Source: Candidatus Marinacidobacterales bacterium (GTDB lineage Bacteria; Acidobacteriota; Vicinamibacteria; Marinacidobacterales; DATDRI01). From it: DNA of 64,000 nucleotides. Both the position numbers and the translations under genes were made by a program. The notes beneath the pieces are model-generated. The model was not told the origin of the DNA, ran no database searches, and saw only the letters and a program-made list of their open reading frames with translations. The stretch covers positions 4,480,001-4,544,000 of the forward strand of contig CBDCNP010000002.1 in NCBI GenBank assembly GCA_965219415.1, read 5' to 3'. Shown here one piece after another: positions 524-63,928 of this stretch (the first letter of the stretch is position 1; the number at the start of each line of letters is the position of its first letter).

Positions 524-670
524 GTTGGTGAGATGACGCTAAGACTTTACGCTGCGTTAAATTACAGCCAGAATAGCGCTCGCGACCTTCGCCGCGCGCT
601 AAATGGAGCGTAAGCGCTGTTTTTGCAAAGGGATACGTACACATCACCAACAGCAAACAGCGCAAGCACC
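524..670 (+). mobile_element. MITE M1 (IS1-type GGTGCTT ends), 5'-truncated by the IS3 element
   Basis: Matches complete copies at 25389-25554 and 43395-43560; ends ...CGCAAGCACC. Confidence 0.85.
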
Positions 671-671
671 C

Positions 672-707
672 GGCTATTTCAAGAGGGCCGAGTTTTGGCA
701 CAGGACG
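672..707 (+). repeat. Isolated 'Y' transposon end
   Basis: TATTTCAAGAGGGCCGAGTTTTGGCACAGGACG, an end found about 21 times in the window. Confidence 0.85.
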
Positions 708-900
708 GGGTACCGCCGCGCACCTACTTGTCGCGCGTCACATCGCGTCTTGCTGCCGCCGAGCGCCCTCGGGTGTGGTAGGTTCAGCATGGGTATGGTC
801 GTTCTCCCTCTATTCTCCGTCTGTAGCCTCGTTTTCGTTCTCCTTGTTTTGGATAGATTCCAGGTTAAAATGTTGCCAAGTTCGAGCGTTATTTCCCTCT

Positions 901-1695
901 GTGAAAGATAAAGCGCCTCAGCACGCACGGCCGAGCGATGCGACCGAACCCACCGCACCCGAGCCCACCTACGCCGAAAGAGCGCGAACCCTGGTGCACG
1001 TCGGTCGGGTGGGAACCCTGTCGACGCTGTCGCAGAAAGTGGCTGAGTTCCCGTTCGGCTCGGTTGCGCCTTACGGCCTCGATGAGCGCGGTTGCCCGAC
1101 GTTTCTCATTAGCACCATGGCAATGCACACCCAAAACGTGCTCGCGAACGATCGCGCCAGCCTTCTCGTTACCGAAGCCGGCGCAGCCGAGGATCCTCTG
1201 GGCGCGGGACGTGTCACCCTCGTCGGCCACGTGGCGAAAACACCCGAGTCCGCGCTCGCGCACGTACGCCAAGAGTACTTGGTGCGTTACCAAAACGCGT
1301 CTTATTGGGTCGACTTCAAAGACTTCGCTTTTTTCCAAATGGACATCGTCGACGTGTACTTCGTCGGTGGATTCGGGGTCATGGGATGGGTGGGCGCCGA
1401 TGACTATCGTACTGCCGAGCCCGATCCGCTCGCAGATGCTGCGTTTGGCATCATCGAGCACATGAACGAAGATCACGTGGACGCGATGCTGTTGCTCGCG
1501 CGCGCTGTCGCCGGCATCGAAGCTGAAGACGCGAAGATGACTGCCGTCGACCGTCTCGGCTTCCACGTGCGCTTGACCACCGACGACGAGATGAAAGGGA
1601 TACGCGTGCCATTCACGCGCGAGGTGCGTAGCAGGGAGGAAGTCCGAACCGTTATCGTGGAGATGGTACGTCGGGAGGGAGGCGCCGCCGGCTAG
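901..1695 (+). CDS. HugZ-like pyridoxamine 5'-phosphate oxidase family protein with C-terminal DUF2470
   Basis: 'GTLSTLS..FPFGSVAPY', 'HTQNV..RASLLV', 'YFVGGFG..GWV', 'IIEHMNEDH', 'VDRLGF'. GTG at 901 is the likely start (ORF open from 775). Confidence 0.85.
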   Translation: MKDKAPQHARPSDATEPTAPEPTYAERARTLVHVGRVGTLSTLSQKVAEFPFGSVAPYGLDERGCPTFLISTMAMHTQNVLANDRASLLVTEAGAAEDPLGAGRVTLVGHVAKTPESALAHVRQEYLVRYQNASYWVDFKDFAFFQMDIVDVYFVGGFGVMGWVGADDYRTAEPDPLADAAFGIIEHMNEDHVDAMLLLARAVAGIEAEDAKMTAVDRLGFHVRLTTDDEMKGIRVPFTREVRSREEVRTVIVEMVRREGGAAG

Positions 1696-1839
1696 AGCAG
1701 CGTATCAAGGTTGCATACGAGAGCTGATAGTACGGGCATTTTTTCCCGAAGGCTCGACATCAGCTCAGTCGTACTTGACGAGAAAAAGTGATTTCATGAC
1801 CAAGGATGACTACTGCTTCGCCGACTCGATCAACCGACC

Positions 1840-2006
1840 GGTGCTTACTCCGTTTACTGTTGCCGGCTCGTCCATGTCGTCGTGTGAGGACGGCGCTTAT
1901 GCACGGTTTGGCGCAAGCTGAAGTCCAGTGACGTTAAAATCTGATGTAATCTACTGCACTAAAAAGCCTTCCCCGTATGCTAGCAACAGTCAATGACGAA
2001 AGCATC
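1840..2006 (+). mobile_element. MITE M5: degenerate IS1-type ends, interior different from M1
   Basis: Starts GGTGCTTACTCCGTTTACTGTTG, ends CAACAGTCAATGACGAAAGCATC. Interior is repeated in reverse at ~10905-11046. Confidence 0.7.
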
Positions 2007-2303
2007 GCCCAAAGCCTGGGCCGATCGTCCTCAGAGAGCTTGAGACGCTTGCCCCGAAGCCCGGCTCGGAGCACGCGGTTCTCCTCTTGCAGGTGGTCGA
2101 TCACATCCTGCTGCTGGCGGTTGACCCAGCCAGCCAGAACGAGCACTAGGAATTACACGTGGTACGTCATCATGGAGCTGAAAGATAACACCCTCGGGGC
2201 CAGACGATTGTAAAGCCTACGGCCCTTGGCCCGGTCGCAAACACAGACACTAAGCTGCTGATTTATGGTCTATTTCAAAAGGGCCGAGTTTTGGCACAGG
2301 ACG
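2007..2303 (-). mobile_element. Left end ('Y') plus N-terminal fragment of an rve integrase element
   Basis: '[32 protein letters not shown]' matches 38271-38675; the Y end terminates at 2303. Confidence 0.85.
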
Positions 2304-2682: not shown

Positions 2683-2710
2683 CCGCACCCCGATCCTTGC
2701 ACAGTGCGGC

Positions 2711-3996
2711 TGTCCATCATCATTATTAATCCGGGACTGGACTCTAGGGCCCGGACCGCCCTCGAGCACATGCTGGAGAGCGTGGTCAGCGCGCGAGGGA
2801 AGGTGCTGAGGACGAACTTCTCGGCGACCAGCCGAGTAACGCGAGCGACCAAGCTGACTCAGGCTGCCTCTCGCCACTCGTATCGATGGTGCAGTCCACC
2901 GACTCGCGGCAGTGCGACTACTTTCGCCGTAGGAGACGGTCGGTGCGTGACCGTTCTCAAGCTCGGTGTGTCCTTGTTCAGCCCCAAGTGGCAACGGTCC
3001 TCATGATAGTAGCTGATGTAAGCTCGCACGAGCCGGATGAGATGACATGCACCGAGAACCACGACGTGCTCAAGGAGCTCGCGACGGCAGCTGCCGACCC
3101 ACCGCTCCGCGGTTCCGTTTTGCCATGGGCTGCGAAACGAAGTGCGAACGGGTTTTGTGCCCGTTGCCTTGATGAACTCGATGACCGCAGCGTTAAAGAT
3201 GAAGTCGCGATCGAAGATGAGATATCTCGGAGCGGTGTCGTAGGGAAACGCCTCGCGTAGTTGCTGAATAACCCAAGCAGACGTCGGGTGGAACGTGGCG
3301 TTGAAGTGAACGATGTGCCGGCGACCGTGCTCGATGACGAAGAAGCCGTACAGCAGCCGGAGCGACGCGGTGGGCACGGTGAACAGATCCATGGCGGCGA
3401 TATCGTCTTTATGGTTGCGCAAGAAAGCCATCCATCGTTTCAGCTGGTCGGGCTCCGCGGGACGCCGCGGCAGGTATCGCGACACCGTGCTCTCGGAGAT
3501 GATGAAACCGAGCTTGGTGAGCTCAGCATGGATGCGTGGCGCCCCCCAGCCGTCTTGCGCCATCGTGCGGACGAGGCGACGAATCTCAGCATCAATCCGA
3601 GGCCGACCGGGATGGCAGCGCTGCGAGATATTTGCCCAGTACCGTCGGAATCGGTCGCGATGCCAACGGGCTACGGTGTCCGCGTGGACGATGAGCAGGC
3701 GGCTCGCCCACACGGGCCACGAACCTCGAAGGGCAACCCAGAAAGCCCGTTCCGTGTCGTCGAGCGGTGGGCGTGGGCGCTCTTTCTTCAGCGCCGTCAC
3801 TTGCTGCCGCAAAGCGACGTTCTCCAACACCAGGTCGGCGCGGCGCCGACACATCGCCCGAATGGCACGGACGCCAAGTGAGACGAGGAAGACAACAACG
3901 TTGAGCATAGCGGCGGAGTTTCGCCGTCTTCGGCCCGGAATTCAAGCGGAGCGTAAGTCCTTGATTTCGTGGGCGGAGCAGTTTTGACGATGCACA
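2711..3996 (-). mobile_element. IS481/IS3-like rve IS, copy 1 (transposase 2859..3908, 349 aa)
   Basis: Ends TGTGCATCGTCAAAACT / TGTCCATCATCATTAT; DDE motifs 'AMDLF', 'IFDRD', 'QNGTAERW'; C-terminus 'GGLHHRYEWREAA'; no TSD. Confidence 0.95.
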
Positions 3997-4745
3997 AGTC
4001 CACGGGCCGCTGGATCCACCCGACCGGCACACGGACCTGTACCGTGGCGCACCGGTTCCCTGCTCGCCCGGGTGCCAGGATACGCTAAAGGGCAAGCCAG
4101 CCCTGACGCTGACCAAGCCCCCGAGTCCCGGAGACGGACTCTCTGATGAAGCTATCCGCAAAAAATTGAGACTTCTGAAGTCGGTCGACGAGGGTGTGGG
4201 ACGGATTCTCAGGACGCTGGCGCAGGAAGGAGTCCTAGACCAAACAGCCGTCATTCTCACGAGCGACAACGGGTTCTTCTTGCGGGAGCACGGTCTGCGT
4301 GACAAGCGCTGGGCATACGAGGAAGCGATCCGCATTCCACTCCTCGTGCGTTACCCTCCGCTCACACGTCCAGGGGCGAGAATCGACCAGATCGTCCTGA
4401 ACGTGGACTTGGCCCCTACGCTGCTTGAACTTGGGGGTGTGCCCGTTCCTGCCGAGGTGCACGGTCGTTCGTTTTTGCCGCTCCTGAAAGGAAAGAAGGA
4501 AGGGTGGAGGGACATGTTCGCGGCCGAGTATTTCAGAGAGAGCCGTTTCCCACGCACCCCTACATGGGAAGCGCTCCGAACGGAGCGCTGGAAATACATT
4601 CGATACCCTGAGTTGGGTATGGAATACGATGAACTCTACAATCTACGGAGCGATCCCTACGAACTCCGGAACGTGGTGAACGATATGAGATTGACAGACC
4701 TGCTGGAAAGACTTCGGAAAAGGCTGACTCGGCTTCTAACATTTC
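3997..4745 (+). pseudogene. Sulfatase C-terminal fragment, 5'-truncated by the IS
   Basis: 'SVDEGVGRIL', 'LTSDNG', 'DKRWAYEEAIRIPL', 'NVDLAPTLL', 'ELYNLRSDPYE' (ORF 4166..4969). Confidence 0.85.
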
Positions 4746-4912
4746 CTCCGCGTGCTGCCTTCGACGATTCAGCCCTCAGCAGCAGCTCACCGGTGCTTCT
4801 GCTATCAAGTGTTGCACTGACGGCTTCGACTACTCTACTCGCTGAAAGTTCTGGCCATGGCCAAGACCGCTGTGAGGCCGTCTCCGGTTGTACTCTCGTG
4901 TCTCGAGTTGGT

Positions 4913-4963
4913 CGTGAGGTCAAAATATTCATGCGGCTTCCCGATGGTAGAAACGTAGCAACC
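4913..4963 (-). repeat. 'V' transposon end (right end of a second rve element)
   Basis: CGTGAGGTCAAAATATTCATGCGGCTTCCCGATGG; reverse strand encodes 'YHREAA*'. Also ends at 16210, 16625, 17778 and 25646. Confidence 0.8.
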
Positions 4964-4974
4964 CCGTGAGGTAT

Positions 4975-5052: not shown

Positions 5053-6063
5053 GGTGCTTCCGCCATCAAGTGTTGCTACGCGGCCGCGGGCAGTGGTACA
5101 GGTGCGGAAGAGAGCGGGTTGCGCGCCCCAGTGAGCACGAAAACCTCGATCCGCGACCACAAAGGAATCGTCGTCACCAAGAAGATGTCTCGAAAGGTGA
5201 GCCGTCGCGTGGTCAGACCGGCCTGCATAGCCGGAGTTCGGATCTCACGTCCGAACTTCAGAGCTCCGTGCGGTCGGACGAAGTTGTAATAGCAACGGAG
5301 CAACTCCAGGTGCTCATTGAGCCTCTCCGTCGAGCGAGCGTGAGAAAGTATTCGTCTCGAAAGGTATGCCGAGCTTTGCCGGATGGTCAGATTCAACCGC
5401 TCGATGAACGACGTGTTCAATGTCGAGGAGTCCTCGGAGTTATTGAGCGCGTCTTCAAATCGCCACGCGGCTCCGTGCAGCGCTCTCCGTTCGACCTTGA
5501 TGATGCGATCGTTCCTGCGCGTTTTTAGGACCTGGCCGTAGAGACACGCTGGACCGAAGAAGCGACGGATGACTTTCTGGTAGAATTCGAATCCATCCGT
5601 GACGATCAGGGGAAGACGTCCGAAATTCATCCGTCTCGAAAGGTCGCAAAACAGAGCGTGAGTGTTCCGGTAGCTTCGCCTTCCCGTCACCGTCGATGGC
5701 CAGAGCCGAGACCAGACTTCGATTGTAACGAAGACCCAACTCGGTGTCTTCTTGTTGCCCGCGAACGTGCGAATCTCGTCGGCTTGAAGCTCTTCGGCAG
5801 CGAAGCCAGCGATCCTTCTGTGATTGAATCGACGACACACTTGGGCTGCCTTCTCGAGCCAGCGGGCGACGGTGTTCCAGGCAATCCCTTTGATCCGGGA
5901 AATCGAGGAAATGCTGACACCCTCGACTCTGAGAGCGATGACCCCATCGAAAATAGCTCTTCGATGTTGGAGACGGTAGTAGGGCGTGCCTTTCGTCGAG
6001 GAGAACGTCTTTCCGCACTCGCCGCACCGGTATCGAAGGCGTTTCCCGGACCTCGTCCTGTGC
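5053..6063 (-). mobile_element. IS1-family element copy A (fused InsA/InsB transposase, 5'-truncated)
   Basis: 'RYRCGECGKTFS' zinc ribbon, 'LQADEIRTF', 'IVTDGF', 'NTSFIERLNLTIR'; right end GGTGCTTCCGCCATCAAGTGTTG. Confidence 0.9.
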
Positions 6064-6883
6064 GGTGCTTCCGCCATCAAGTGTTGCTACGCGGCTGCGG
6101 GCAGTGGTACAGGTGCGGAAGAGACCGGGTTGCGCGCCCTACTGAGCACGAAAACCTCGATCCGCGACCACAAAGGAATCGTCATCGCCAAGAAGATGTC
6201 TCGAAAGGTGAGCCGTCGCGTGGTCAGACCAGCCTGCATAGCCGGAGTTCGGATCTCACGTCCGAACTTCAGAGCTCCGTGCGGTCGGACGAAGTTGTAA
6301 TAGCAACGGAGCAACTCCAGGTGCTCATCGAGCCTCTCCGTCGAGCGAGCGTGGGAAAGCGTTCGTCTCGAAAGGTATGCCGAGCTTTGCCGGATGGTCA
6401 GATTCAACCGCTCGATGAACGACGTGTTCAATGTCGAGGAGTCCTCGGAGTTATTGAGCGCGTCTTCGAATCGCCACGCGGCTCCGTGCAGCGCTCTGCG
6501 TTCGACCTTGATGATACGATCGTTCCTGCGCGTCTTGAGGACCTGGCCGTAGAGACACGCTGGACCGAAGAAGCGACGGATGACCTTCTGGTAGAATTCG
6601 AATCCATCCGTGACGATCAAGGGAAGACGCTCGAAATTCATCCGCCTCGAAAGGTCGCGAAACAGAGCGTGAGTGTTCCGGTAGCTTCGCCTTCCCGTCA
6701 CCGTCGATGGCCAGAGCCGAGACCAGACCTCGATCGTAACGAAGACCCAACTCGGCGTCTTCTTGTTGCCCGCGAACGTGCGAATCTCGTCGGCTTGAAG
6801 CTCTTCGGCAGCGAAGCCGGCGATCCTTCTGTGATTGAATCGACGACACACTTGGGCTGCCTTCTCGAGCCAACGGGCGACGG
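6064..6883 (-). mobile_element. IS1-family element copy B, truncated by MITE M2
   Basis: Near-identical tandem copy of A, cut exactly at the CGT of the Y end (6884). Confidence 0.9.
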
Positions 6884-7030
6884 CGTCCTGTGCCAAAACT
6901 CGGCCCTTTTGAAATAGACCACAAATCAGCAGCTTAGACGCCCTTGGAATCCGCGCAGAATCCAGGGTATTTCGCGCCGCAGGGCTGACTTCCGACCCAT
7001 GGGCTGGCGGATGAATAAATAGAAGGCACA
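6884..7030 (-). mobile_element. MITE M2 (147 bp, X end to Y end)
   Basis: CGTCCTGTGCCAAAACTC...GATGAATAAATAGAAGGCACA; copies at 17373, 20794, 23358 and 57226. Confidence 0.9.
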
Positions 7031-7695: not shown

Positions 7696-7807
7696 CTTAC
7701 GCTCCATTTAGCGCGCAGCGAAGGTCACCAGCGCTATTTTGGCTGTAATTTAATGCACCGTAAGGGTCTTAGCGCTATCTCACCAACACTTAATTGCGGG
7801 AGCAACC
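7696..7807 (-). mobile_element. Degenerate partial MITE M1
   Basis: CTTACGCTCCATTTAGCGCGC...CAACACTTAATTGCGGGAGCAACC. Confidence 0.75.
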
Positions 7808-7844: not shown

Positions 7845-8534
7845 TTACCGGCGGATCAATTCGTCGAGCCAGTCTCGCAATAGATCGGTCTGAAATTCCT
7901 TGCCGAAGCGACGAAACAACTCCTGGCTGGCACAAATCGCAAGGCTCCTTGGTTCTGCGACCAGCTCGCCGCTCGGTACGTCGAACTTCTTTGAAAACTC
8001 TCGAATGCGAGCCCTTTGCGTATCAATAAAATCGCGCGTGATACTGCTAACGACCAAATCCCTGCCCTTTAGACCTCCAAACGTGATGTCGACATGCATC
8101 CGGTCATCACCCGCGCCGGTATTGGAAAGTCTGGCAGCGAATTCGAAGATCTCCACTAACGTCAAGAGAGTGTCTTCAATTACCAGAAGATCACCGCGGC
8201 GCCAGTTCTTATCCGCTGGCCAGAGATCAGATTGATCTCGCCAGTCGTGACAGATGCCACGCAGGGATAGGAACAGTCCTGACTGGTACAGGCGCCACCA
8301 TTCGAGATGGTGCCTCCACTCGCTCTCCTGTTCCACGAAGTCGATGTCGGGAACAGGATCGGGTGTACTGGGGTCTATATGAGGATAATCCCAGCCACGC
8401 AACAAGACCTTGCACCTTTGAACAATTTGAAACAGTGATGTGATCGGCTGAACCCGATCGACCACGAAGCAACCGGGGTGAATGCTCACCTCGACGTATC
8501 CCGCCGTCTTGATCTTTTGCGTTAGATCACTCAT
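7845..8534 (-). CDS. Hypothetical protein translationally coupled to the AlbA gene (resembles the C-terminal region of longer AlbA proteins)
   Basis: ATG at 8534 overlaps the AlbA stop; 'LRGWDYPH', 'EWWRLYQSGLF'. Confidence 0.75.
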   Translation of the reverse strand: MSDLTQKIKTAGYVEVSIHPGCFVVDRVQPITSLFQIVQRCKVLLRGWDYPHIDPSTPDPVPDIDFVEQESEWRHHLEWWRLYQSGLFLSLRGICHDWRDQSDLWPADKNWRRGDLLVIEDTLLTLVEIFEFAARLSNTGAGDDRMHVDITFGGLKGRDLVVSSITRDFIDTQRARIREFSKKFDVPSGELVAEPRSLAICASQELFRRFGKEFQTDLLRDWLDELIRR

Positions 8535-9156
8535 TGAGGGCCTGAGCCTTCTGAGCTGCGAAGCGCTCAGCATCGGTAGCGAGCGCGGCTCCGGTCGCTT
8601 CGATCCCAGCTCCTCTCACGCGTATCAAGAACTCCCGTACTCCCTTTTCGACCGCTAGATCCAACAACTCTCTGAAATGGACGTAGTCGGCAACTGCCGT
8701 GGTAGCAGGGAGCTGATTGCTTCGGACATAACAGGCGCCCGCGCGCAGGATCTCGGCACCCCCAGGCGCGAGAACTGGTTTTCTACAAAGTACCGGCACG
8801 GTCTCGAATTCGTGGATCGTCAGGATTGCTATTGTTCGACCCTGGCTAGGTCCCGCCGCAATGACCATGACTTCTGTATCGACTCGAACAAACGGATCGG
8901 CGTAGCTAGCAAGAGAAGCCCGAACAGCATCTGCGTTCCGCCAGGTGTCTGCCTGGGCCGGAGTCAACCCTTGTATTTGATGGTTGTCCGAAACACCAAT
9001 GAGCACAAGGCCGCCGTCACGCTTATTCGTCATCCCTAGAACCGCGCGCGCGACTTCAGCTAATTGATGGCGATTCGTTCGAGATCTCGGTCCCTTGAAC
9101 TCCACACCACGCCGTTCACCAATGGCGACAAGCTCGATGAGTTCTTGGTCTGTCAT
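8527..9156 (-). CDS. Schlafen/AlbA_2-domain protein
   Basis: 'GERRGVEFK', 'VLGMTNKRDGGLVLIGVSD', 'YVRSN'. Confidence 0.85.
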   Translation of the reverse strand: MTDQELIELVAIGERRGVEFKGPRSRTNRHQLAEVARAVLGMTNKRDGGLVLIGVSDNHQIQGLTPAQADTWRNADAVRASLASYADPFVRVDTEVMVIAAGPSQGRTIAILTIHEFETVPVLCRKPVLAPGGAEILRAGACYVRSNQLPATTAVADYVHFRELLDLAVEKGVREFLIRVRGAGIEATGAALATDAERFAAQKAQALNE

Positions 9157-11046: not shown

Positions 11047-11304
11047 CCTGGAGTTGCTCCGTTGCTATTACAACTTCGTCCGACCGCACGGAGCTCTGAA
11101 GTTCGGACGTGAGATCCGAACTCCGGCTATGCAGGCCGGTCTCACCACGCGACGGCTCACCTTTCGAGACATCTTCTTGGCGACGACGATTCCTTTGTGG
11201 TCGCGGATCGAGGTTTTCCTGCTCAGTAGGGCGCGCAACCCGGTCTCTTCCGCACCTGTACCACTGCCCGCAGCCGCGTAGCAACACTTGATGGCGGAAG
11301 CACC
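11047..11304 (+). mobile_element. IS1-family 3' fragment with right end
   Basis: 'LELLRCYYNFVRPHGALK...PAAA*' followed by CAACACTTGATGGCGGAAGCACC. Confidence 0.9.
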
Positions 11305-11473
11305 GGTTGTGCTCTGCGAAAAGTCGATCCAGCGTTGATTGCGAGGTTTAGACCTGCTATGGTCGGCTGATTCTGGCTGATCTTCTTTTTTGTGGATCAC
11401 AACCAATCCACGTCGTCCTCAACTGGTTCGAAGAGCTCAAGCGACTCGTCCCCACCAATTAGCCTAAACAAAG

Positions 11474-42270: not shown

Positions 42271-42289
42271 CGCCGCAAGCCGTTCGACC

Positions 42290-53738: not shown

Positions 53739-54203
53739 TTCGTGTAACACGGCCGTGTCAACCCGTATTCGGGTCGTGCCACGCGATCGAAGTGACGGAC
53801 GAATTTCTTGACCAAACGGGAAAAAAAGAGTGGAAGGCTCAGTGGATTTCGAACCGGCAGAGAGACCTTTATTGGTCGGCGAGTACCTTGTGTTGACCAT
53901 GGAAGATGGTCGCACGTTCAGCTTTTTACTGCCGCACTCCGGATATAATAGCATTGAGCCGTGCGGCGGTATCGAGTAGAGGCGATCCTGTGTCTGTCAG
54001 ATGGAAGACCGGAAAAGAGGCGTCCACAACCAGGGCTTTGGCATGCGCTATCGGCCAAGCGATATCGTCGTCAATCGCCACATCGAGCTGAGATTCCTCC
54101 AACAGGCCAAGGGTCCGGCATACGAAACGCCTTTCGATTGTCGGGTCATTTTGAATGATCTCTGTCACAGCACCGATATCGAAGCCCCATCCCTCGGTTT
54201 CCC

Positions 54204-55220
54204 TGTGCATCGTCAAAACTGCTCCGCCCACGAAATCAAGGACTTACGCTCCGCTTGAATTCCGGGCCGAAGACGGCGAAACTCCGCCGCTATGCTCGAC
54301 GTTGTTGTCTTCCTCGTCTCACTTGGCGTCCGTGTCATTCGGGCGATGTGTCGGCGCCGCGCCGACCTGGTGTTGGAGAACGTCGCTTTGCGGCAGCAAG
54401 TGACGGCGCTGAAGAAAGAGCGCCCACGCCCACCGCTCGACGACACGGAACGGGCTTTCTGGGTTGCTCTTCGAGGTTCGTGGCCCGTGTGGGCGAGCCG
54501 CCTGCTCATCGTCCACGCGGACACCGTGGCCCGTTGGCATCGCGACCGATTCCGACGGTACTGGGCAAATATCTCGCAGCGCCGCCATTCCGGTCGGCCT
54601 CGGATTGATGCTGAGATTCGCCGCCTCGTCCGCACGATGGCGCAAGACGGCTGGGGGGCGCCACGCATCCATGCTGAGCTCACCAAGCTCGGTTTCATCA
54701 TCTCCGAGATTACGGTGTCGCGATACCTGCCGCGGCATCCCGCGGAGCCCGACCAGCTGAAGCGATGGATGGCTTTCTTGCGCAACCATAAAGACGATAT
54801 CGCCGCCATGGATCTGTTCACCGTGCCCACCGCTTCGCTCCGGCTGCTGTACGGCTTCTTCGTCATCGAGCACGGCCGTCGGCACATCGTTCACTTCAAC
54901 GCCACGTTCCACCCGACGTCTGCTTGGGTTATTCGGCAACTGCGTGAGGCGTTTCCCTACGACACCGCTCCGAAATATCTCATCTTCGATCGCGACTTCA
55001 TCTTTAACGCTGCGGTCATCGAGTTCATCAAAGCAACGGGCACAAAACCCATTCGCACTTCGTTTCGCAGCCCATGGCAAAACGGAACTGCGGAGCGGTG
55101 GGTCGGCAGCTGCCGTCGCGAGCTCCTTGAGCATGTCGTGGTTCTCGGCGCATGGTCATCTCATCCGGCTCGTGCGAGCTTACATCAGCTACTATCACGA
55201 GGACCGTTGCCACTTGGGGC
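54204..55220 (+). mobile_element. rve IS copy 6, frameshifted near 55154 and 3'-truncated
   Basis: Left end intact; identity stops at ...CACTTGGGGC. Confidence 0.9.
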
Positions 55221-55259
55221 ATGACGAGCATACCTACGCGGGCGTTGTGCGAGTATGAA

Positions 55260-56726
55260 ATGGATAAAAAAAAGACGCTCCGAGGAACCGCACTCCTAGT
55301 TGCGGTCACATGCGGTCTCCTGGCATGGTTTCTAGCGTGTGCCAATCCGCCTTGGACCCAGGATGAAGCGGCCCTCGACATCTGCCTGAATAGCGAGCGC
55401 GAGCCTGTCGTACGAATCGAGGCCTGCCGCACCGCTGCCGAGCAGGGGGTCGCCTCAGCGCAGTTCAACCTCGGGTTCATGTATTCCAAAGGCGAGGACG
55501 TGCCGCAAGACGATGGCGAGGCAGTGAAGTGGTATCGGTTGGCCGCCGAGCAGGGATATGTCCCAGCACAGTTCGAGCTCGGGATCATGTATGGTAAAGG
55601 CAACGGTGTGCTGCGAGACGTCGGCGAGGCAGTCAAGTGGGTCCAGCTGGCCGCCGAGCAGGGATACGCCTCAGCGCAGCGCGCCCTCGGCGACCTGTAT
55701 CGCACCGACGAAGGCGTGCCCGACGGCATGCCGCAGGACTACGCCGAGGCAGTGAAGTGGTACCGGCTAGCTGCCGAGCAGGGATACGCCTCAGCGCAGG
55801 CCGACCTTGGCTTCATGTATTCCAACGGCGAGGGTGTGCCGCAAGACTATGCCGAGGCAGTGAAGTGGTTCCGGCTGGCCGCCGACCAGGGAGACGTCTG
55901 GGCGCAGCTCAACCTCGGCCTCATGCATGAGTACGGTCGGGGCGTGCCGCAAGACTACGGTGAAGCAGTGAAGTGGTTCCGGCTGGCCGCCGACCAGGGA
56001 GACGTCTGGGCGCAGTTCAGCCTCGGCAACATGTATCGCGCCGGCGAGGGTGTGCCGCAAGACTATGCCGAGGCAGCGAAGTGGTACCGGTTGGCCGCCG
56101 ACCAGGGACACGCCTCAGCGCAGAACAACCTCGGCTTCATGTATTCCAACGGCGAGGGTGTGCCGCAAGACTATGCCGAGGCAGTGAAGTGGTTCCGGCT
56201 GGCCGCCGAGCAGGGATACGCCTCAGCGCAGGCCGACCTTGGCTTCATGTATTCCAACGGCGAGGGTGTGCCGCAAGACTATGCCGAGGCAGTGAAGTGG
56301 TTCCGGCTGGCCGCCGACCAGGGACACGCCCCAGCGCAGAACAACCTCGGCATCATGTATTCCAACGGCGAGGGTGTGCCGCAAAACTACATCCAAGCCC
56401 ATATGTGGCTCAACCTTGCAGGGGCTAGAGGAGATGAAGATTCGAGAAAAGCTCGCGATCTTGTGAAGGATAAGATGACCCCTGAGCAGATCGCCGAGGC
56501 CCAGCGTCTCGCCAGCGTATGGAAGCCGGGAATGGTGATCGATGCGCCGGCCCAGATGTCTGAGCTGCCATCAGACGGCGACGCGCTACAGCAATGGGAC
56601 GACGACGGTAATGGACGGATTACCTGTGCGGAAGCGCGGCGGCACGGCCTTGCCCCTGTGCACCGAGGGCACCCCGCCTATTCCTACATGCGCGACCCCG
56701 ACAACGACGGCATCGTATGTAAATAG
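55260..56726 (+). CDS. Exported Sel1-repeat protein with C-terminal Excalibur-like Ca-binding domain
   Basis: About 9 'AVKWxRLAAxQG..AQ.NLG.MY..G.GVPQD' repeats (108-bp DNA units); 'WDDDGNGRITCAEAR...MRDPDNDGIVC'. Confidence 0.9.
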   Translation: MDKKKTLRGTALLVAVTCGLLAWFLACANPPWTQDEAALDICLNSEREPVVRIEACRTAAEQGVASAQFNLGFMYSKGEDVPQDDGEAVKWYRLAAEQGYVPAQFELGIMYGKGNGVLRDVGEAVKWVQLAAEQGYASAQRALGDLYRTDEGVPDGMPQDYAEAVKWYRLAAEQGYASAQADLGFMYSNGEGVPQDYAEAVKWFRLAADQGDVWAQLNLGLMHEYGRGVPQDYGEAVKWFRLAADQGDVWAQFSLGNMYRAGEGVPQDYAEAAKWYRLAADQGHASAQNNLGFMYSNGEGVPQDYAEAVKWFRLAAEQGYASAQADLGFMYSNGEGVPQDYAEAVKWFRLAADQGHAPAQNNLGIMYSNGEGVPQNYIQAHMWLNLAGARGDEDSRKARDLVKDKMTPEQIAEAQRLASVWKPGMVIDAPAQMSELPSDGDALQQWDDDGNGRITCAEARRHGLAPVHRGHPAYSYMRDPDNDGIVCK

Positions 56727-57113: not shown

Positions 57114-57373
57114 TGTGCCTTCTATTTATTCATCTGCCAGCCCATGGGTCGGAAGTCAGCCCTGCGGCGCGAAATACCCTGGATTTTGCGCGGATTCCAA
57201 GGGCGTCTAAGCTGCTGATTTGTGGTGTGCCTTCTATTTATTCATCCGCCAGCCCCATGGGTCGGAAGTCAGCCCTGCGGCGCGAAATACCCTGGATTCT
57301 GCGCGGATTCCAAGGGCGTCTAAGCTGCTGATTTGTGGTCTATTTCTAAAGGGCCGAGTTTTGGCACAGGACG
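57114..57373 (+). mobile_element. Partial plus complete MITE M2 in tandem (second unit 57226-57373)
   Basis: Second TGTGCCTTC interrupts the first copy at 57226. Confidence 0.9.
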
Positions 57374-57667: not shown

Positions 57668-60100
57668 TCAACAGATCCGGCTAGTTGGAATATCGTAGCG
57701 GGTGCAGATGTCCACAATCCGGCCTAGCATTGCCGCCGCTCGGTTACAATGACCTTGCGATTCAAGCCATTGCCCGTATCGTCGCAAGGTGAGGAGTAAC
57801 TCTGGGTGTTCGGATCCGAACACCTCCTCGCGATTGCGCAATGCTTTCGCAAAGAATTCTCCCGCTTGACCGTTTTGTCCTCTACGCGCGAGTACGGTTG
57901 CCATCGTGACATAGCTGCGTCCGATCTTTTCCGGGTTGCCGATTTCCTCGCGTAATCGAAGGCCTTCGTCGCATAGTCGAAGAGCGGTGTCGAGATTGCC
58001 TAAGCCCAGCCAGAGTTCGGCCATGTTGTTGAGTATGGTTGCATAGAAGAAATCCTGGCGTTCCCTCGATCTTTGCTCGGCAGCAAGCGCCTGCTCCAGC
58101 AGAGGCTGTGCTTCCGAAAATCTTCCGGAGCGCACATACGTGATGCCAAGATTGTTCAGGGCTAGCGACAAATCCTCATCGTCGCGACTCACAGTGCGCT
58201 GCATAATTTCGAGAGACCGTCTGAGCAAGGGCTCCGCACTCGTGAAATCGAAACGATCGGTGTACACAAGTGCCAAGTTATTGAGGCAAGTAGCAACATC
58301 AGGATCATCAGATCCTAAGTCTCGCTCTCGGAGCGCCACAGATTGGAGATGGATTCGCTCAGATTCGAGAAAGTCACCTCTCATTCTGAGATAGCAGGCG
58401 ACGCCGTTCAGTACGTTTCCGGCATCAGCAACCCCGAAACCAAATTCCGTGGTCAGCGCTGCGGCAGCGATGCCATGTGCGAGCAATCGCTCGCATCGAT
58501 GCCACGTATCATAGCTTCCTGAAGGAAATATTTTGTTCAGAGCGCGTGTTGCGCGTAGCGCCCATTGCCGCCGGGAATCATCACCGAGAGAGCCTCTCAC
58601 AACGGCTTGCACGAGACGGTGAGTGGTGTAAGTCAGCGATGCCACATCACGACGAATCAGAGAGTACCTGGTTAGCGGCTCGAACAATTTGTCACGAACA
58701 ACGGGATCATCCGCCGCTTCGGCAGCGAGCGCGGCGATGTGTTCACCCAACTCGGAGCCACCATCGATGAATATTTCGATGGGAATACTCTCGGGTGCCA
58801 AAAACGCGCTGACACGAAGCACCTCGGCTGCTGCCTGGTTCTCCGTGCCTATCTGCGCAAAGTTCATTGCCCATGTTGTTTCGACTGAAGCTGGATAATC
58901 CCCAGCAACCGGACCCGCCTCATTTAGTAGTTGGAGGTGCCGCTTTCTAAAGCTAGTCAAGTAATCCTTGAAGGACGTGTCGTGTGCAGTTACGAACGCT
59001 GCTGCCTGTTCGAGGGCCAGAGGTAGATATCCAAGTTCCTCGGCCAGTGCGGACGCTGCGTCTCTCTCGTCATTCACAGCGCTGCGCCCTGTTCGTGTGA
59101 AAAGGAAATCGACCGCATCGTCTGCCGGCATCTCAATCACATCCAAGGGCTTCGCAACGCCTACAGAATCGAGCACATGGGCGCGCGATGTTAGAAGTAT
59201 GTGCCCTTGAGGTGCGACGGGCAGAAATGGCTTGATCAATTGCGGCTGATCCGCGTTATCAAAGATAAGCAGCCAGCGAGAATTTCTGTCACACCATTGC
59301 TTTACGGCTTCAACGGTACGATTGTGATCAGGGTCGTCATTATCCACCAACCCGAGGGCTACACCAATGTCCACAAGACTTGTCTTGGTTGTGATTTCAG
59401 TATCGGCTGAAACCCACAAAATCGCTCGATACTGGTCGCGATACCGGTAAGCGTACTCGATAGCCGTCTGGGTCTTGCCGATTCCACCCATACCGCTTAG
59501 GGCTTGAGTCAACGCTGCGCGTCCCGATCTTGCGAGGCATGTACGAAGCGATGCAAGCGTTTCCTCGCGGCCGGTGAAGAATGGATTCTTGGCATATGGC
59601 ACGTTCCACACAATTAAGGTTGGATAGAAACTGGGATCCCGCGACGGCCCATCTCGTGTGCATGACTGATTTGCACGACTGCGGAGTCGCCGGAGAATTA
59701 AGTCAGCTACGTCATGCGGTGCACGGTCACCGATCATCACATACCCATCAGTGGAAAGCATCCCGGGGATCGGCGCGTCATCGAAGCGGAAGGGCATAAT
59801 ACGTTCCCCTTCCAATTGAAACAGGATATCGCGGATCTGCCGCCATTCGAGATGACACCAATTCTTCCGCTGGTAATCGGCGCAAAGAAAAGGTACCAGG
59901 AGATCAGTATGCTCACGGTAGAGCGTTCCAAGATACAGGTCGAGATCTGGCCTGGCGAGTTCTGCCGCCAGATATTCGTCGTAGAGTATGTTTTCGCGGC
60001 CGAGTTCCGCCTCAAGAGTATCAGCTACCCTCCGAACGTAGTCACGCTTTTCTCCGGAGAACGACAAGCCAACACGAAATCTTCGGTGAGTTTCTGCCAT
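57668..60100 (-). CDS. TIR / NB-ARC (STAND NTPase) / TPR protein, bacterial NLR-like
   Basis: TIR 'VGLSFSGE.R..V...WCHLEW'; Walker A 'GMGGIGKT'; Walker B 'LLIFDNA'; 'LLTSR', 'LPLAL'; TPR 'HP/DP.VA..LNNLA'. Confidence 0.92.
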   Translation of the reverse strand: MAETHRRFRVGLSFSGEKRDYVRRVADTLEAELGRENILYDEYLAAELARPDLDLYLGTLYREHTDLLVPFLCADYQRKNWCHLEWRQIRDILFQLEGERIMPFRFDDAPIPGMLSTDGYVMIGDRAPHDVADLILRRLRSRANQSCTRDGPSRDPSFYPTLIVWNVPYAKNPFFTGREETLASLRTCLARSGRAALTQALSGMGGIGKTQTAIEYAYRYRDQYRAILWVSADTEITTKTSLVDIGVALGLVDNDDPDHNRTVEAVKQWCDRNSRWLLIFDNADQPQLIKPFLPVAPQGHILLTSRAHVLDSVGVAKPLDVIEMPADDAVDFLFTRTGRSAVNDERDAASALAEELGYLPLALEQAAAFVTAHDTSFKDYLTSFRKRHLQLLNEAGPVAGDYPASVETTWAMNFAQIGTENQAAAEVLRVSAFLAPESIPIEIFIDGGSELGEHIAALAAEAADDPVVRDKLFEPLTRYSLIRRDVASLTYTTHRLVQAVVRGSLGDDSRRQWALRATRALNKIFPSGSYDTWHRCERLLAHGIAAAALTTEFGFGVADAGNVLNGVACYLRMRGDFLESERIHLQSVALRERDLGSDDPDVATCLNNLALVYTDRFDFTSAEPLLRRSLEIMQRTVSRDDEDLSLALNNLGITYVRSGRFSEAQPLLEQALAAEQRSRERQDFFYATILNNMAELWLGLGNLDTALRLCDEGLRLREEIGNPEKIGRSYVTMATVLARRGQNGQAGEFFAKALRNREEVFGSEHPELLLTLRRYGQWLESQGHCNRAAAMLGRIVDICTRYDIPTSRIC

Positions 60101-60153
60101 AGATTTCACGCAATCAATTCTGCAACTTTGAATTGTACACGGTCAAGTTTACG

Positions 60154-60275
60154 GGTGCTTCCGCCATTAAGTGTTGGTGAGATGACGCTAAGACTTTACG
60201 GTGCATTAAGTTACAGCCAAAATAGCGCTCACAACCTTCGACGCACGCTAAATGGAGCGTAAGCACTTTCTTGGT
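60154..60275 (+). mobile_element. MITE M1 truncated by rve IS copy 7
   Basis: Starts GGTGCTTCCGCCATTAAG. Confidence 0.85.
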
Positions 60276-61560
60276 TGTCCATCATCATTATTTGTCCGGG
60301 ACTGGACTCTAGGCCCGGACTGCCCTTGAGCACATGCTGGAGAGCGTGGTCAGCGCGCGAGGGAAGGTGCTGAGGACGAACTTCTCGGCGACCAGCCGAG
60401 TAACGCGAGCGACCAAGCTGACTCAGGCTGCCTCTCGCCACTCGTATCGATGGTGCAATCCACCGACTCGCGGCAGTGCGACGACTTTCGCCGTAGGAGA
60501 CGGTCGGTGCGTGACCGCTCTCAAGCTCGGTGTGTCCTTGTTCAGCCCCAAGTGGCAACGGTCCTCGTGATAGTAGCTGATGTAAGCTCGCACGAGCCGG
60601 ATGAGATGACATGCGCCGAGAACCACGACGTGCTCAATGAGCTCGCGACGGCAGCTGCCGACCCACCGCTCCGCAGTTCCGTTTTGCCATGGGCTGCGAA
60701 ACGAAGTGCGAACGGGTTTTGTGCCCGTTGCCTTGATGAACTCGATGACCGCAGCGCTAAAGATGAAGTCGCGATCGAAGATGAGATATTTCGGAGCGGT
60801 GTCGTAGGGAAACGCCTCGCGTAGTTGCTGAATAACCCAAGCAGACGTCGGGTGGAACGTGGCGTTGAAGTGAACGATGTGCCGGCGACCGTGCTCGATG
60901 ACGAAGAAGCCGTACAGCAGCCGGAGCGACGCGGTGGGCACGGTGAACAGATCCATGGCGGCGATATCGTCTTTATGGTTGCGCAAGAAAGCCATCCATC
61001 GTTTCAGCTGGTCGGGCTCCGCGGGACGCTGCGGCAGGTATCGCGACACCGTGATCTCGGAGATGATGAAACCGAGCTTGGTGAGCTCAGCATGGATGCG
61101 TGGCGCCCCCCAGCCGTCTTGCGCCATCGTGCGGACGAGGCGACGAATCTCGGCATCAATCCGAGGCCGACCGGGATGGCGGCGCTGCGAGATATTTGCC
61201 CAGTACCGTCGGAATCGGTCGCGATGCCAACGGGCTACGGTGTCCGCGTGGACGATGAGCAGGCGGCTCGCCCACACGGGCCACGAACCTCGAAGGGCAA
61301 CCCAGAAAGCCCGTTCCGTGTCGTCGAGCGGTGGGCGTGGGCGCTCTTTCTTCAGCGCCGTCACTTGCTGCCGCAAAGCGACGTTCTCCAACACCAGGTC
61401 GGCGCGGCGCCGACACATCGCCCGAATGGCACGGACGCCAAGTGAGACGAGGAAGACAACAACGTTGAGCATAGCGGCGGAGTTTCGCCGTCTTCGGCCC
61501 GGAATTCAAGCGGAGCGTAAGTCCTTGATTTCGTGGGCGGAGCAGTTTTGACGATGCACA
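60276..61560 (-). mobile_element. rve IS copy 7 (transposase 60423..61472)
   Basis: Ends intact; no TSD. Confidence 0.95.
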
Positions 61561-61561
61561 A

Positions 61562-62491
61562 CCATCGGTTCCATCCCGGACCGCGGACGACATCCACGAC
61601 CGGGCGCTCGGGGCCTTCCTCGGTCTGGCGGTGGGCGACGCGGTCGGCACGACGCTCGAATTCTGCTCCCGCGATACGCAGCCGCGTCTAGAAGACATGG
61701 TCGGTGGCGGCCCGTTCGACCTGTCGGCCGGCGCTTGGACCGACGACACGGCCATGGCGCTGGCCCTCGCCGACAGCCTAGCGGAATCCAAGACGCTCGA
61801 CTGCCGGGACCTTATGGACCGTTTCGTGAAGTGGTGGCGAGATGGAGACTACTCGTGCACCGGACACTGCTTCGACATCGGAAACACGACCCAAGAAGCA
61901 CTCACCCGGTACCTGCAGACGTGTGATCCGGTCGCGGGTTCGACCGATCCCTGGAGCGCAGGCAACGGCTCGCTGATGCGGCTCGCCCCCGTTGCGCTCC
62001 GGTTCGGGCCCGACCGGCCGCGCCTGATCGCAGCAGCCGCCGACCAGTCCCGGACGACCCACGGCGCCGAGGAAGCAGTGGACGCCTGCCGGGCGTTCGG
62101 CGCACTTCTGGCAGACGCCATCGCCGGGTCACCGTTCTCGGACGTTCTAGCTCCGAGACGATTCACGGGAGCGGCGGCAATCGCTCAGGTCATAGCCGGC
62201 AGCTGGCGAGGACGGACACGGGATACGATCCGCTCCAGCGGGTACGTCGTTCACACGCTCGAAGCCGCCATCTGGTCAGTCGCCCGCACCGGAGACTTCC
62301 GCGGCGCGGTGCTGCTCGCGGCCAACCTGGCCGACGACGCCGATACGGTAGCAGCAGTGACGGGGCAGCTCGCCGGCGCCCTCTACGGCCTGAACGCCAT
62401 CCCCGACCACTGGCGGGAACGCGTTGCTTGGAAGGATCGACTCCTGGCAGCGGCGCGGCGGTTGCTTTCGGAACCCCTTGCCGACCGGTAG
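61562..62491 (+). CDS. ADP-ribosylglycohydrolase (DraG/Tri1-like); native start probably removed by the IS
   Basis: 'DRALGAFLGLAVGDAVG', 'WTDDT', 'AGNGSLMR', 'DADT.AAVTGQLAGA'. Confidence 0.88.
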   Translation, partial: PSVPSRTADDIHDRALGAFLGLAVGDAVGTTLEFCSRDTQPRLEDMVGGGPFDLSAGAWTDDTAMALALADSLAESKTLDCRDLMDRFVKWWRDGDYSCTGHCFDIGNTTQEALTRYLQTCDPVAGSTDPWSAGNGSLMRLAPVALRFGPDRPRLIAAAADQSRTTHGAEEAVDACRAFGALLADAIAGSPFSDVLAPRRFTGAAAIAQVIAGSWRGRTRDTIRSSGYVVHTLEAAIWSVARTGDFRGAVLLAANLADDADTVAAVTGQLAGALYGLNAIPDHWRERVAWKDRLLAAARRLLSEPLADR

Positions 62492-62600
62492 AAGTTGGGT
62501 GGGTAGCCGAAGCACGGCTCCTGACCCGGTCGCAAACACAGACACTAAGCTGCTGATATTATGGCCTGTTTCAAAAGGCCGAGTTTTGGCACAGGACGAC

Positions 62601-63260
62601 ATGGCGAAGACCGCAACGCAACGGCCAAAAGCAAAGAACAAACCGTACACGTCCAGTCGGGCAATGGTGATTTTCGGCAAAACGATTTCACGCGCACGCA
62701 CGTTCGAAGTCTTGTATGAAACAACAGTCAAGAGTCGTTCGGTTTCGCATCCCGGCGACCTCATCCGAGCGACGGTCACATTTTCCGTCGCTGCTATGGA
62801 CGCGTACTTTACCGACAGGTTCTGTGAGAGCTTGGTACCCTTTCTAAAGAATCGAAGAGCCGGAAAAAACCTCATTCATCTAGTCCGTGAAGCCGGAGTT
62901 GACACCGAGCAAGTTCTCATACTCCTCACGATGAAGAGGCCATATCGTCGGATCCACACGTTAGTTAGCGCCTATCTCGAGCGGCGAACGACTCAGCGAC
63001 TCGACGCAATTGACGAACTCTTTCTTTGCTTCGGCCTTCCCGAATTCACGAAGCGCGTCGAGGGTAGTATGGGCAAGAAAACGGCGTTGGCCCGTGTGGA
63101 GAAACTCGTCGAGCGACGCCATCAGATTGTGCATGACGGCGACATGAATGAGCATGGAAAAGTGCGGCCTATAACTAAAGCAACATTTAGCCAGCTCGAC
63201 ACGTTGGAGGAGTTCGTCACGGCTGCGGACAAATTGCTCTATCAAGCGCTAACCTTCTAA
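62601..63260 (+). CDS. HEPN-domain protein
   Basis: R-x4-H 'RHQIVH'; 'DLIRA.V.FSVAAMDAYF'; ATG 2 nt after a Y end (62520-62598). Confidence 0.75.
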   Translation: MAKTATQRPKAKNKPYTSSRAMVIFGKTISRARTFEVLYETTVKSRSVSHPGDLIRATVTFSVAAMDAYFTDRFCESLVPFLKNRRAGKNLIHLVREAGVDTEQVLILLTMKRPYRRIHTLVSAYLERRTTQRLDAIDELFLCFGLPEFTKRVEGSMGKKTALARVEKLVERRHQIVHDGDMNEHGKVRPITKATFSQLDTLEEFVTAADKLLYQALTF

Positions 63261-63343
63261 AACTTCGACTCGGACAAGGAATTCCGAGCATGATTGACGG
63301 GTTCGGAGCCAGAGTCCGCGCATGCTCTTACGCAGCGCCGCAT

Positions 63344-63509
63344 GGTGCTTGCGCTGTTTGCTGTTGGTAATGTGAACGTATCCCTTTGCAAAAAAGCGCT
63401 TACGCTCCATTTAGCGCGCGGCGAAGGTCGTGAGCGCTATTTTGGCTGTAATTTTAATGCAGCGTAAAGTCTTAGCGTCATCTCACCAACACTTAATAGC
63501 GGAAGCACC
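63344..63509 (-). mobile_element. MITE M1, complete (166 bp)
   Basis: GGTGCTTGCGCTG...GCGGAAGCACC. Confidence 0.9.
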
Positions 63510-63928
63510 GCCCATGGCAAAACGGAACTGCGGAGCGGTGGGTCGGCAGCTGCCGTCGCGAGCTCCTTGAGCACGTCGTGGTTCTCGGCGCATGTCATCT
63601 CATCCGGCTCGTGCGAGCTTACATCAGCTACTATCACGAGGACCGTTGCCACTTGGGGCTGAACAAGGACACACCGAGCTTGAGAGCGGTCACGCACCGA
63701 CCGTCTCCTACGGCGAAAGTCGTCGCACTGCCGCGAGTCGGTGGATTGCACCATCGATACGAGTGGCGAGAGGCAGCCTGAGTCAGCTTGGTCGCTCGCG
63801 TTACTCGGCTGGTCGCCGAGAAGTTCGTCCTCAGCACCTTCCCTCGCGCGCTGACCACGCTCTCCAGCATGGGCTCGAGGGCAGTCCGGGCCTAGAGTCC
63901 AGTCCCGGACAAATAATGATGATGGACA
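63510..63928 (+). mobile_element. rve IS copy 8, 3' fragment with right end
   Basis: '...HRYEWREAA*'; ends GATGATGGACA. Confidence 0.92.

Follow-up and report, generated by a model that had tools for sequence, protein, structure and literature searches.

Transposon ends without target-site duplications form the joints of a rearrangement-prone region in a sponge-associated Candidatus Marinacidobacterales genome

The DNA analysed here, referred to as the window, is a 64,000-nt stretch (G000:C3:4480001-4544000) of a sponge-associated Candidatus Marinacidobacterales (Acidobacteriota) genome; the assembly comprises 8.05 Mb in three contigs (C1 to C3) with approximately 59% G+C, and the genome is not reduced. 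An initial annotation of positions 524–63928 had proposed that a small set of repeated transposon ends, used in trans by resident DDE transposases, served as portable joints from which a cassette-like gene array was built. As a description, portable joints used in trans is right. What the region records is unusually rearrangement-prone transposition, and it is not a proven gene-capture machine. Every junction is a precise element terminus beside DNA with the target-site signature of that family, the target-site duplications (TSDs) of the families concerned are at chance level, and the cut genes are truncated duplicates. Sponge metagenomes were among the public runs holding parts of the window, and the near relatives of one window transposase came almost all from metagenome-assembled genomes (MAGs) of Candidatus Marinacidobacterales bacterium.

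Judging from their transposases and termini, the ends fall in two groups of DDE elements, one IS481-like and the other IS1-like. The former comprises ISY and its miniature inverted-repeat transposable elements (MITEs), termed Y-MITEs, together with IS-A, the X elements and an XY hybrid unit; the latter comprises IS-B and MITE-G. The Y end, sharply delimited on its outer side after ...GGCACAGGACG, forms the inverted terminal repeats of ISY (1428 nt, with a 381-aa rve_3-type transposase); its termini are common to ISY and the Y-MITEs (~317 nt, 14 adjacent end pairs), and it also bounds derivatives of 81 nt and of other lengths. IS-A measures 1286 nt, encodes a 349-aa transposase and is present in 48 full copies that are ~97–99% identical. 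The XY unit (148 nt, 70 full copies) has one X and one Y end, and MITE-G (166 nt, 148 full copies, 87–98% identity) has its termini in common with IS-B (GGTGCTTCCGCC...). Both XY and MITE-G bear out the claim that ends are used in trans. The X ends (TGTGCC...) are of the TG...CA type that marks IS481 elements, and IS-A and X both start with TGTG and finish with CA; TGTGCC is also found within Y, five bases inward of the tip. A related 1.7-kb element lies in the window, and its four full copies are 99.5–100% identical. MITE-G, the Y-MITE and XY are all short, non-coding and present in many copies, as expected of MITEs, and MITE-G and the Y-MITEs have terminal inverted repeats in common with an autonomous insertion sequence (IS).

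Pfam searches with the IS481-like transposases returned rve_3 together with HTH_32/HTH_21. The IS481 model NF033577 was the top match for ISY (97.2 bits) and the 1.7-kb element (91.7 bits) and gave 80.1 bits for IS-A, all short of its cut-off of 224; for IS-A, the IS3 model NF033516 scored slightly higher (83.1 bits, below the cut-off of 160). The best match of IS-B was the IS1 model NF033558, at 77.9 bits and under the cut-off of 100.

IS481 elements leave a short TSD at each insertion and IS1 elements one of 8–9 bp. With the expectation taken from matches of at least 3 nt among re-paired flanks, TSDs of at least 3 nt were observed in 4 of 48 IS-A copies (2.9 expected), 1 of 148 MITE-G (3.1), 3 of 70 XY units (3.3) and none of 73 Y pairs (1.3), a 2-bp CG duplication being indistinguishable from the Y terminus itself. 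All four values are at chance level, and the duplications expected of MITEs, IS481 and IS1 are thus missing from these families. A TSD of IS1 length is missing from all 148 MITE-G copies; both flanks have 2 nt in common in seven of them and 5 nt in one, at or below chance, and the 1.7-kb element lacks a TSD in 4/4 copies. Among full ISY copies in other Marinacidobacterales genomes (n=47), the flanks shared no nucleotide in 38 cases, one in 6, two in 2 and three in 1. The absence of TSDs that had been read from the window is therefore borne out at the level of re-paired flanks, with one exception: the IS3-family copy at 1–523 is a classical insertion into MITE-G with a 4-bp TSD.

We also examined whether the two flanks of a copy adjoin elsewhere in the genome, an adjacency test that is informative only when both flanks lie in repeated DNA. 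Contiguous flanks were found for 0/71 MITE-G copies, 0/23 IS-A, 0/40 Y pairs, 0/32 XY units and 0/7 X pairs, or 0/173 overall, which agrees with the earlier remark that the two sides of an element almost never belong to the same gene. Synthetic controls were recovered in 8/8 cases of exact contiguity and in 8/8 with a 9-nt overlap. A search for empty sites with joined flanks had returned five apparent matches for the 148 MITE-G copies, all of them one-sided and none an empty site, and the adjacency test was used in its place. Neither the ISY copy at C3:657803 nor the Y-MITE at C3:2523362 had an empty-site counterpart in the relatives; at these loci one flank is 100% identical to a distant place in genome G001 or G018.

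Two other families served as controls. The IS256-family element (224.6 bits, above the cut-off) carries an 8-bp TSD in 19 of its 24 full copies and has contiguous flanks in 4/4 informative cases, with an 8-nt overlap; one empty site is visible in a paralogous duplicate. For the IS3-family element, a 3–4-bp TSD was present in 27 of 36 full copies and contiguous flanks in 14 of 21 informative ones, many of the copies being nested in Y ends or MITE-G. Because both controls behave classically, the assembly is faithful at this scale, and the pattern is family-specific rather than an artefact.

The DNA beside the ends points to transposase. Across 566 Y ends genome-wide, flank positions -4 to -1 are A in 66%, C/T in 85%, C in 87% and C in 77% (AYCC), and position -2 is C or G at 93–98% of IS-A and X ends (nSY). 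Since each end keeps its own target signature, the joints are not random breaks but transposase-made, as the initial annotation had supposed. Y-end flanks make up an inverted pair, commonly ACCC on the left and GGGT on the right, in other genomes too, a pattern compatible with a palindromic target whose stagger is zero or 2 bp (CG). We considered a palindromic repeat as a dedicated Y target and dropped the idea, since there is no empty palindrome in abundance. Ends of the TG...CA type, IS-A and X among them, often adjoin the outermost 21 nt of a Y end (genome-wide, and at window positions 16039 and 23919), and the other IS481-like elements may preferentially target the GGC inside the Y terminus.

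The segments between ends do not behave as discrete cassettes. Paralogous copies of the modules continue past the window breakpoints, which identifies these as private truncations and not cassette ends, and at 11/11 breakpoints the missing half of the cut gene was found only in intact copies, never beside an element end. In the serine-recombinase element, 97 nt including the recombinase 5' end were replaced by the left 532 nt of ISY. The history of ppk2 could be followed further and provides the donor locus that had been called for: the intact gene is found at 3.14 Mb on C3, where repeats are few; a 2,304-nt core segment, with 1 mismatch, reached the island as a copy and lies there between a G-type terminal-repeat stub and MITE-G; and the window fragment is a further derivative of that island copy, cut by IS-A. 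Unlike the modules of a composite transposon, paralogues have different bounding ends or none, both ends being in common only for larger segmental duplications. We saw neither a circular intermediate joined end to end nor a bounded cassette inserted again elsewhere, and no module recurred at a second site with its two ends unchanged; the single event that could be caught was a deletion. A dedicated cassette-capture platform is thus not shown.

That event was resolved within a 10.6-kb duplication, the second copy of which lies at C3:4935576-4941408 for the right block. The sole structural difference is a 52-nt loss exactly beside the IS-A left terminus, and AGC, which now flanks it, agrees with the target signature of IS-A. 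To the right of the terminus (window 40308–46140) the copies are 100% identical over 5,833 nt, and to the left 99.2% over 4,711 nt; the shift in divergence falls exactly at the terminus, as if conversion or copying had begun there. The IS-A copies are themselves mosaic, 28.7% of informative site pairs failing the four-gamete test (pairwise homoplasy index, PHI, p=0.011). This supports the inter-copy recombination postulated at the outset.

The ends are far above chance in number. As an 18-mer with up to 2 mismatches, the Y end has 20 matches in the window, close to the ~21 first counted, and shuffled sequences predict 0.00; 13 X termini (15 in the first count), 16 G termini ('GGTGCTT'), 7 IS-A left and 8 IS-A right termini were found, with up to 2 mismatches allowed for X and IS-A and up to 4 for G; three further end types, V, T and U, could not be identified. 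The ends of BLAST alignments cluster sharply on the Y, X, G and IS-A termini. Among the window 20-mers, 42.7% are unique in the genome, 26.4% occur 2–4 times and 30.9% at least five times (57% repeated). The exact Y 18-mer is present 447 times genome-wide (C1 0, C2 27, C3 420), nearly all in patches of C3 at ~2.5–5.7 Mb; at least 10 copies were found in 24 of 89 64-kb bins, the bin of the window having 18. The pattern is not particular to positions 524–63928: the repeat-rich C3 islands (~2.5–5.7 Mb) and C2 are alike, and the window typifies a plasticity zone of several megabases that is full of IS elements and MITEs. Approximately 432 kb of the genome lies in duplicates of at least 98.5% identity. 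A scan of the window for tRNA genes found none, and hence there is no sign of a tRNA-anchored island edge there; an Rfam scan returned a group II intron fragment only. On C1 (2.07 Mb), the Y, IS-A and G families are almost absent, with 0 exact Y 18-mers; C1 does hold IS256-family (10 copies) and IS3-family (5 copies) elements, so the two element sets differ in replicon range.

Modules of the window are 98–100% identical to sequences at scattered places in G001, G002, G014 and G018, the core flanks within the genus being ~85% identical. The norB gene with short flanks (20972–23342) is 99–100% identical in G002 (same genus) and G018 (different GTDB family) and partly present in G014; a Y end lies near the norB stop codon in G002, in G018 and in the genome of the window, with different outer neighbours. 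G002 and G018 both have the joint between ppk2 and MITE-G. Modules that adjoin one another in the window are spread over different contigs in G002 and are megabases apart in G018, which answers the expectation of rearranged orders. An ISY copy elsewhere on C3 has one flank at 85% to G001, the ordinary core divergence, and the other at 100% to a distant part of G001. Near-identical modules across genomes indicate that the island DNA is a recently shared pool. Public short-read-derived contigs stop at the repeats, and no junction was bridged by 31 nt on both sides; unique segments of 2859 nt and 2296 nt were recovered in independent runs with 0 differences. The depth in run X9 was ~10 for the ApeA/KAP segment and ~60–100 for norB (~6–10x), which suggests that norB is carried by several community members. 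The initial annotation had counted a TSD-less pattern throughout the genome, as plain IS decay, against its own model; for these families the pattern is indeed genome-wide, and cassette-like sharing between genomes exists nonetheless.

Approximately 70 window open reading frames (ORFs) of at least 90 aa were scanned with Pfam, and genes were called by Pfam, NCBIfam or PADLOC. The map obtained is as follows (a strand is given where one was assigned).

1–523, plus strand: right part of an IS3-family element (rve/rve_3; NF033516, 187 bits, above cut-off; full length 1258 nt)
524–670: MITE-G, the part right of the IS3 insertion
671–707, plus: Y right-end stub, terminus at 707
775–1695, plus: CREG beta-barrel and DUF2470 gene (HugZ/HutZ-like), unique
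2013–2303, plus: right-hand portion of ISY, Y terminus at 2303
2304–2709: low-copy module cut by a Y end (left) and an IS-A end (right); paralogues continue beyond both
2710–3996, minus: IS-A copy, 1287 nt, 349-aa rve_3 transposase, IS481/IS3-like, no TSD
3997–4969, plus: C-terminal part of a sulfatase, cut at the IS-A terminus; at C3:4166971 a copy extends upstream
5053–6886, minus: two truncated IS-B copies (IS1-like), 5053–6056 and 6064–6886, each cut by a Y-type terminus, with a 7-nt Y stub between
6884–7030, minus: XY hybrid unit, X terminus at 7030 and Y terminus at 6884
7696–7807: MITE-G, truncated
8527–9156, minus: Schlafen AlbA_2 domain gene, unique
9334–10618, minus: IS-A copy, no TSD
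11047–11304: IS-B right-end fragment
11447–12081, minus: MazF-toxin module (mazF 11474–11821), two genome copies
12251–13206, minus: IS-B copy truncated by an IS-A left terminus
13206–14491, plus: IS-A copy (reference), no TSD
14492–14969, plus: ppk2 3' fragment, truncated duplicate of the intact core gene at C3:3.14 Mb
14970–15135: MITE-G; its junction with the ppk2 segment is also in G002 and G018
15400–15744: Y-MITE with both Y termini and a nested X-MITE
17373–17520, plus: XY hybrid unit (reference copy)
18046–19452, minus: ApeA-like HEPN defence gene (PADLOC PDC-S58)
19774–20899, plus: KAP P-loop NTPase, two overlapping ORFs
20794–20941, plus: XY hybrid unit, 49 nt from the norB stop codon
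20990–23281, minus: norB (NorB cytochrome c-like and COX1), intact
23326–23504, plus: G-type terminal-repeat stub (23326–23357) adjoined by an XY unit (23358–23504)
23961–24078, plus: group II intron D1-D4 fragment (Rfam, 53 bits, just over the gathering score)
24567–25229, plus: rlpA (DPBB_1 and SPOR), intact; second copy at C3:4.27 Mb, paralogue on C1
25389–25554: MITE-G, full length (reference copy)
25859–26424, plus: IS256-family transposase fragment (~36 copies)
27159–28438, plus: IS-A copy just upstream of hsdM
28460–35292, plus: type I restriction-modification genes hsdM, hsdS and hsdR, with a YgjP-like metallopeptidase
35505–38889, minus: serine-recombinase element (~12 copies), interrupted by the ISY left part at 38144–38675
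38890–39166, plus: X-MITE pieces, then a Y right end (terminus 39166)
39397–40155, plus: TlpA/ResA-like thiol-disulfide oxidoreductase
40163–40307: MITE-G truncated at an IS-A terminus; the paralogue is short by a further 52 nt
40308–41593, plus: IS-A copy, its left terminus being the 99.2%/100% block boundary of the 10.6-kb duplication
41646–45980: phage-/plasmid-like remnants (prohead protease fragment, S1/P1 nuclease, ParA-like gene, DnaJ-HTH gene), with MITE-G at 43395–43560 and a Y end at 43855
46394–48792: 2.4-kb unit between inverted Y termini, with X-MITE pieces
50759–50839: 81-nt mini-Y element, two Y termini
52088–53818, plus: 1.7-kb IS481-like element, no TSD
54204–55220, plus: IS-A truncated on its right side
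55152–56726, plus: Sel1-repeat protein with an Excalibur domain, 108-nt tandem repeats
57114–57373, plus: partial XY unit, then a full XY with its X terminus inside the first
57668–60109, minus: TIR - NB-ARC - TPR (STAND) gene
60154–61560, minus: truncated MITE-G (60154–60272) adjoined by an IS-A copy (60276–61560)
61561–63260, plus: ADP-ribosyl hydrolase cut at its 5' side by an IS-A terminus, a Y-end piece (62513–62598) and a RiboL-PSP HEPN gene
63344–63928, minus: MITE-G (63344–63509) adjoined by the right 419 nt of an IS-A copy

Most of the gene content first reported was recovered, namely norB, rlpA, the TlpA-like gene, ApeA, TIR-NB-ARC-TPR, HEPN and hsdMSR together with the ppk2, sulfatase and serine recombinase fragments; STAS, kynureninase and GNAT were not among the ~70 ORFs, and no phage-integrase-type match, whether IntI or another tyrosine integrase, was found among them with Pfam. 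The unique 431-aa ORF (46728–48023) of the Y-bounded unit had no match in Pfam, NCBIfam or PADLOC. The MazF module has CGTCC at its start and ACG at its end, which resembles a degenerate Y-type end pair, and it may be a small cargo-carrying derivative. The split in the KAP NTPase is a frameshift unrelated to any element end. The group II intron fragment directly follows a Y terminus, in a segment present 3–4 times in the genome. Between 55385 and 56452 lie eight tandem 108-nt units (one spacing being 120 nt), which code for the Sel1 repeats; the protein is 524 aa long and has its Excalibur domain at the C-terminus. Such repeat proteins are eukaryote-like and typical of host-associated bacteria.

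The explanation that we consider the most probable, while holding it with reserve, is rearrangement-coupled, TSD-less transposition together with end-adjacent deletion in a shared mobilome, the array being a by-product of aberrant transposition and decay. For the ISY, IS-A, X, IS-B and MITE-G families, one-sided joints would be the usual product and clean insertions the exception. Three routes would act, namely transposase-driven deletion of DNA beside an end, TSD-less transposition coupled to duplication or breakage, and recombination between copies, with the transposase-linked ones dominating for these families. The intact genes hugged by ends (norB, rlpA, ApeA, hsdMSR) would be the points where selection halts deletions, and the raw material would be mobile DNA very recently exchanged among co-resident related species. 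In Ngan et al. (mBio 2024; PMC11708052), TSD-less IS movements are tied to adjacent deletions and, for an IS481 element, to a duplication. Several points weigh against this explanation. Deletion alone cannot raise copy number, so that a copy-making step without a TSD must be assumed; such a step was not observed, and the families reach 48 to more than 500 ends. A single end-adjacent deletion (52 nt) was caught directly. The IS3 and IS256 controls, mostly at least 99.4% identical, are younger than IS-A and MITE-G, which leaves age as a confounder, and old scrambling followed by recent quiet could mimic the family difference; the young 1.7-kb IS481-like element offers four copies only. The ppk2 copy and the XY unit fit active capture or mobilisation equally well.

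A broader proposal, which we put forward tentatively, is that, in the present lineage of Acidobacteriota, the IS481-like and IS1-like transposases and their MITEs move mainly by a TSD-less, rearrangement-coupled pathway, their ends being general joints that reshuffle genes and pass them among symbionts. One-ended replication-coupled strand transfer or insertion into breaks would be candidate mechanisms, and either would copy or delete DNA beside an end. With hundreds of such portable ends, host and foreign genes alike would be subject to duplication, truncation and reshuffling, and the resulting pieces would pass among co-resident symbiont species. Since the families multiply without leaving clean insertions, a rearrangement-coupled duplicative pathway stays in play. 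Replicative inversion as the main route is disfavoured, since complementary halves were found at 0/11 breakpoints.

The model of the initial annotation, in which MITE-supplied ends used in trans actively move bounded segments into a cassette-like array shared among genomes, through translocatable-unit-like or one-ended replication-coupled transposition, is possible, and we regard it as doubtful. It would account for the 70 copies of a unit with mismatched ends, for a 2.3-kb ppk2 core segment that was copied rather than moved and now lies between G-type ends, for the ppk2/MITE-G junction in G002 and G018, for norB beside a Y end in three genomes with different outer neighbours, for window-adjacent modules that are megabases apart in G018, and for the 2.4-kb unit in which a unique ORF lies between inverted Y termini; the TSD-less internal copies also resemble those reported for IS26 translocatable-unit arrays (PMC4196232). 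Paralogues, however, pass the module boundaries, which are thus private cuts; no module recurs at another site between the same pair of ends, the transposases scanned include none of the IS6 family, the ends that bound segments are of different families and in both orientations, and comparison of recent duplicates resolved one event only, a deletion.

Ordinary TSD-generating insertions, scrambled later solely by RecA-type inter-copy recombination (inversions and deletions) without unusual chemistry, are an unlikely source of the pattern. They would explain the strong recombination signal among the 48 IS-A copies, the retention of per-end target signatures when flank pairing is lost, and the greater age of the affected families than of the IS3 and IS256 controls. 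Inversions, however, should leave the complementary half beside another copy, which was seen at 0/11 breakpoints, and MITE-G is only 166 nt long and 87–98% alike, yet 148/148 copies lack an IS1-length TSD and 0/71 have contiguous flanks. Also at odds with scrambling alone are the IS-A/ppk2 joint, which arose after a duplication still 99.4% identical, the 52-nt loss at a terminus and not inside an element, and the young 1.7-kb element without a TSD in 4/4 copies. Very improbable is an assembly artefact, with MAG contigs threaded wrongly through shared repeats. The assembly is MAG-like with a marker contamination of 8.45%, the repeats are common to several related genomes in the same sample kind, and public short-read contigs cannot bridge them. 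Nevertheless, the IS256 and IS3 families in the same regions have near-perfect TSDs and contiguous flanks, the mosaic grain of 0.1–3 kb would be far under the length of long reads (the presumed read type), the Y/norB flank recurs in the independent assembly G002 and the ppk2/MITE-G joint in G002 and G018, and the unique segments of 2859 nt and 2296 nt show no differences in independent runs.

Of the known systems, the closest likeness is to the events of Ngan et al. (PMC11708052). They likewise describe TSD-less flanks where movement came with deletion or duplication, an IS481-family element at a duplication junction and stepwise adjacent deletions beside a retained IS end; such events were a minority there (14/83 in evolution lines and two single cases), whereas here essentially every copy of four or five families is affected, amounting to hundreds of ends including MITEs, and IS3 and IS256 are not. 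In IS26 translocatable units and pseudo-compound arrays, as reported in PMC4196232, PMC4676283 and PMC4894685, segments are likewise separated by copies without their own TSDs and shared between replicons, one element copy plus adjacent DNA forming the unit. The joints here are instead IS481-like, IS1-like and MITE ends; they point both ways and are in many cases solo or truncated, and the segments are mostly truncated at private positions, with no same-ended unit found twice. Internal copies without TSDs are thus held in common with IS26 arrays, and bounding by whole IS copies in direct orientation is not, the bounds being ends of four families. The IS6-family model NF033587 had no match among the examined transposases, the IS256 control giving a faint sub-threshold one.

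IS expansion with IS-mediated deletion in host-restricted bacteria and symbiosis islands (a subject of PMC8692435) shares the host association, hundreds of IS copies in islands, gene fragments, and duplications and deletions at IS. The present genome differs in being 8 Mb and unreduced, in the dominance of several MITE families with simple insertions almost absent for particular families, and in modules that are 98–100% identical across different GTDB families. Integron arrays also consist of a run of short, tightly bounded genes with repeats between; the repeats here, unlike those of integrons, are transposon termini in both orientations, gene fragments are included and the pattern spans megabases. 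Our literature searches found no account of these elements in sponge symbionts or of the pattern for Acidobacteria, and nothing relevant on IS481 elements without TSDs.

IS copies that lack a TSD are usually treated as occasional scars. In this genome the usual insertion footprint is absent from every informative copy of whole families, with hundreds counted. If only decay is responsible, the region is a clean, quantified case of IS-driven erosion without genome shrinkage. If the TSD-less pathway is true, this genome would show, in nature and at genome scale, what Ngan et al. (2024) reported as rare laboratory events. If the cause is transposase chemistry and not age, these elements would offer a natural system for transposition coupled to duplication and deletion, and would show MITE ends helping to build and exchange defence and accessory islands among sponge symbionts.

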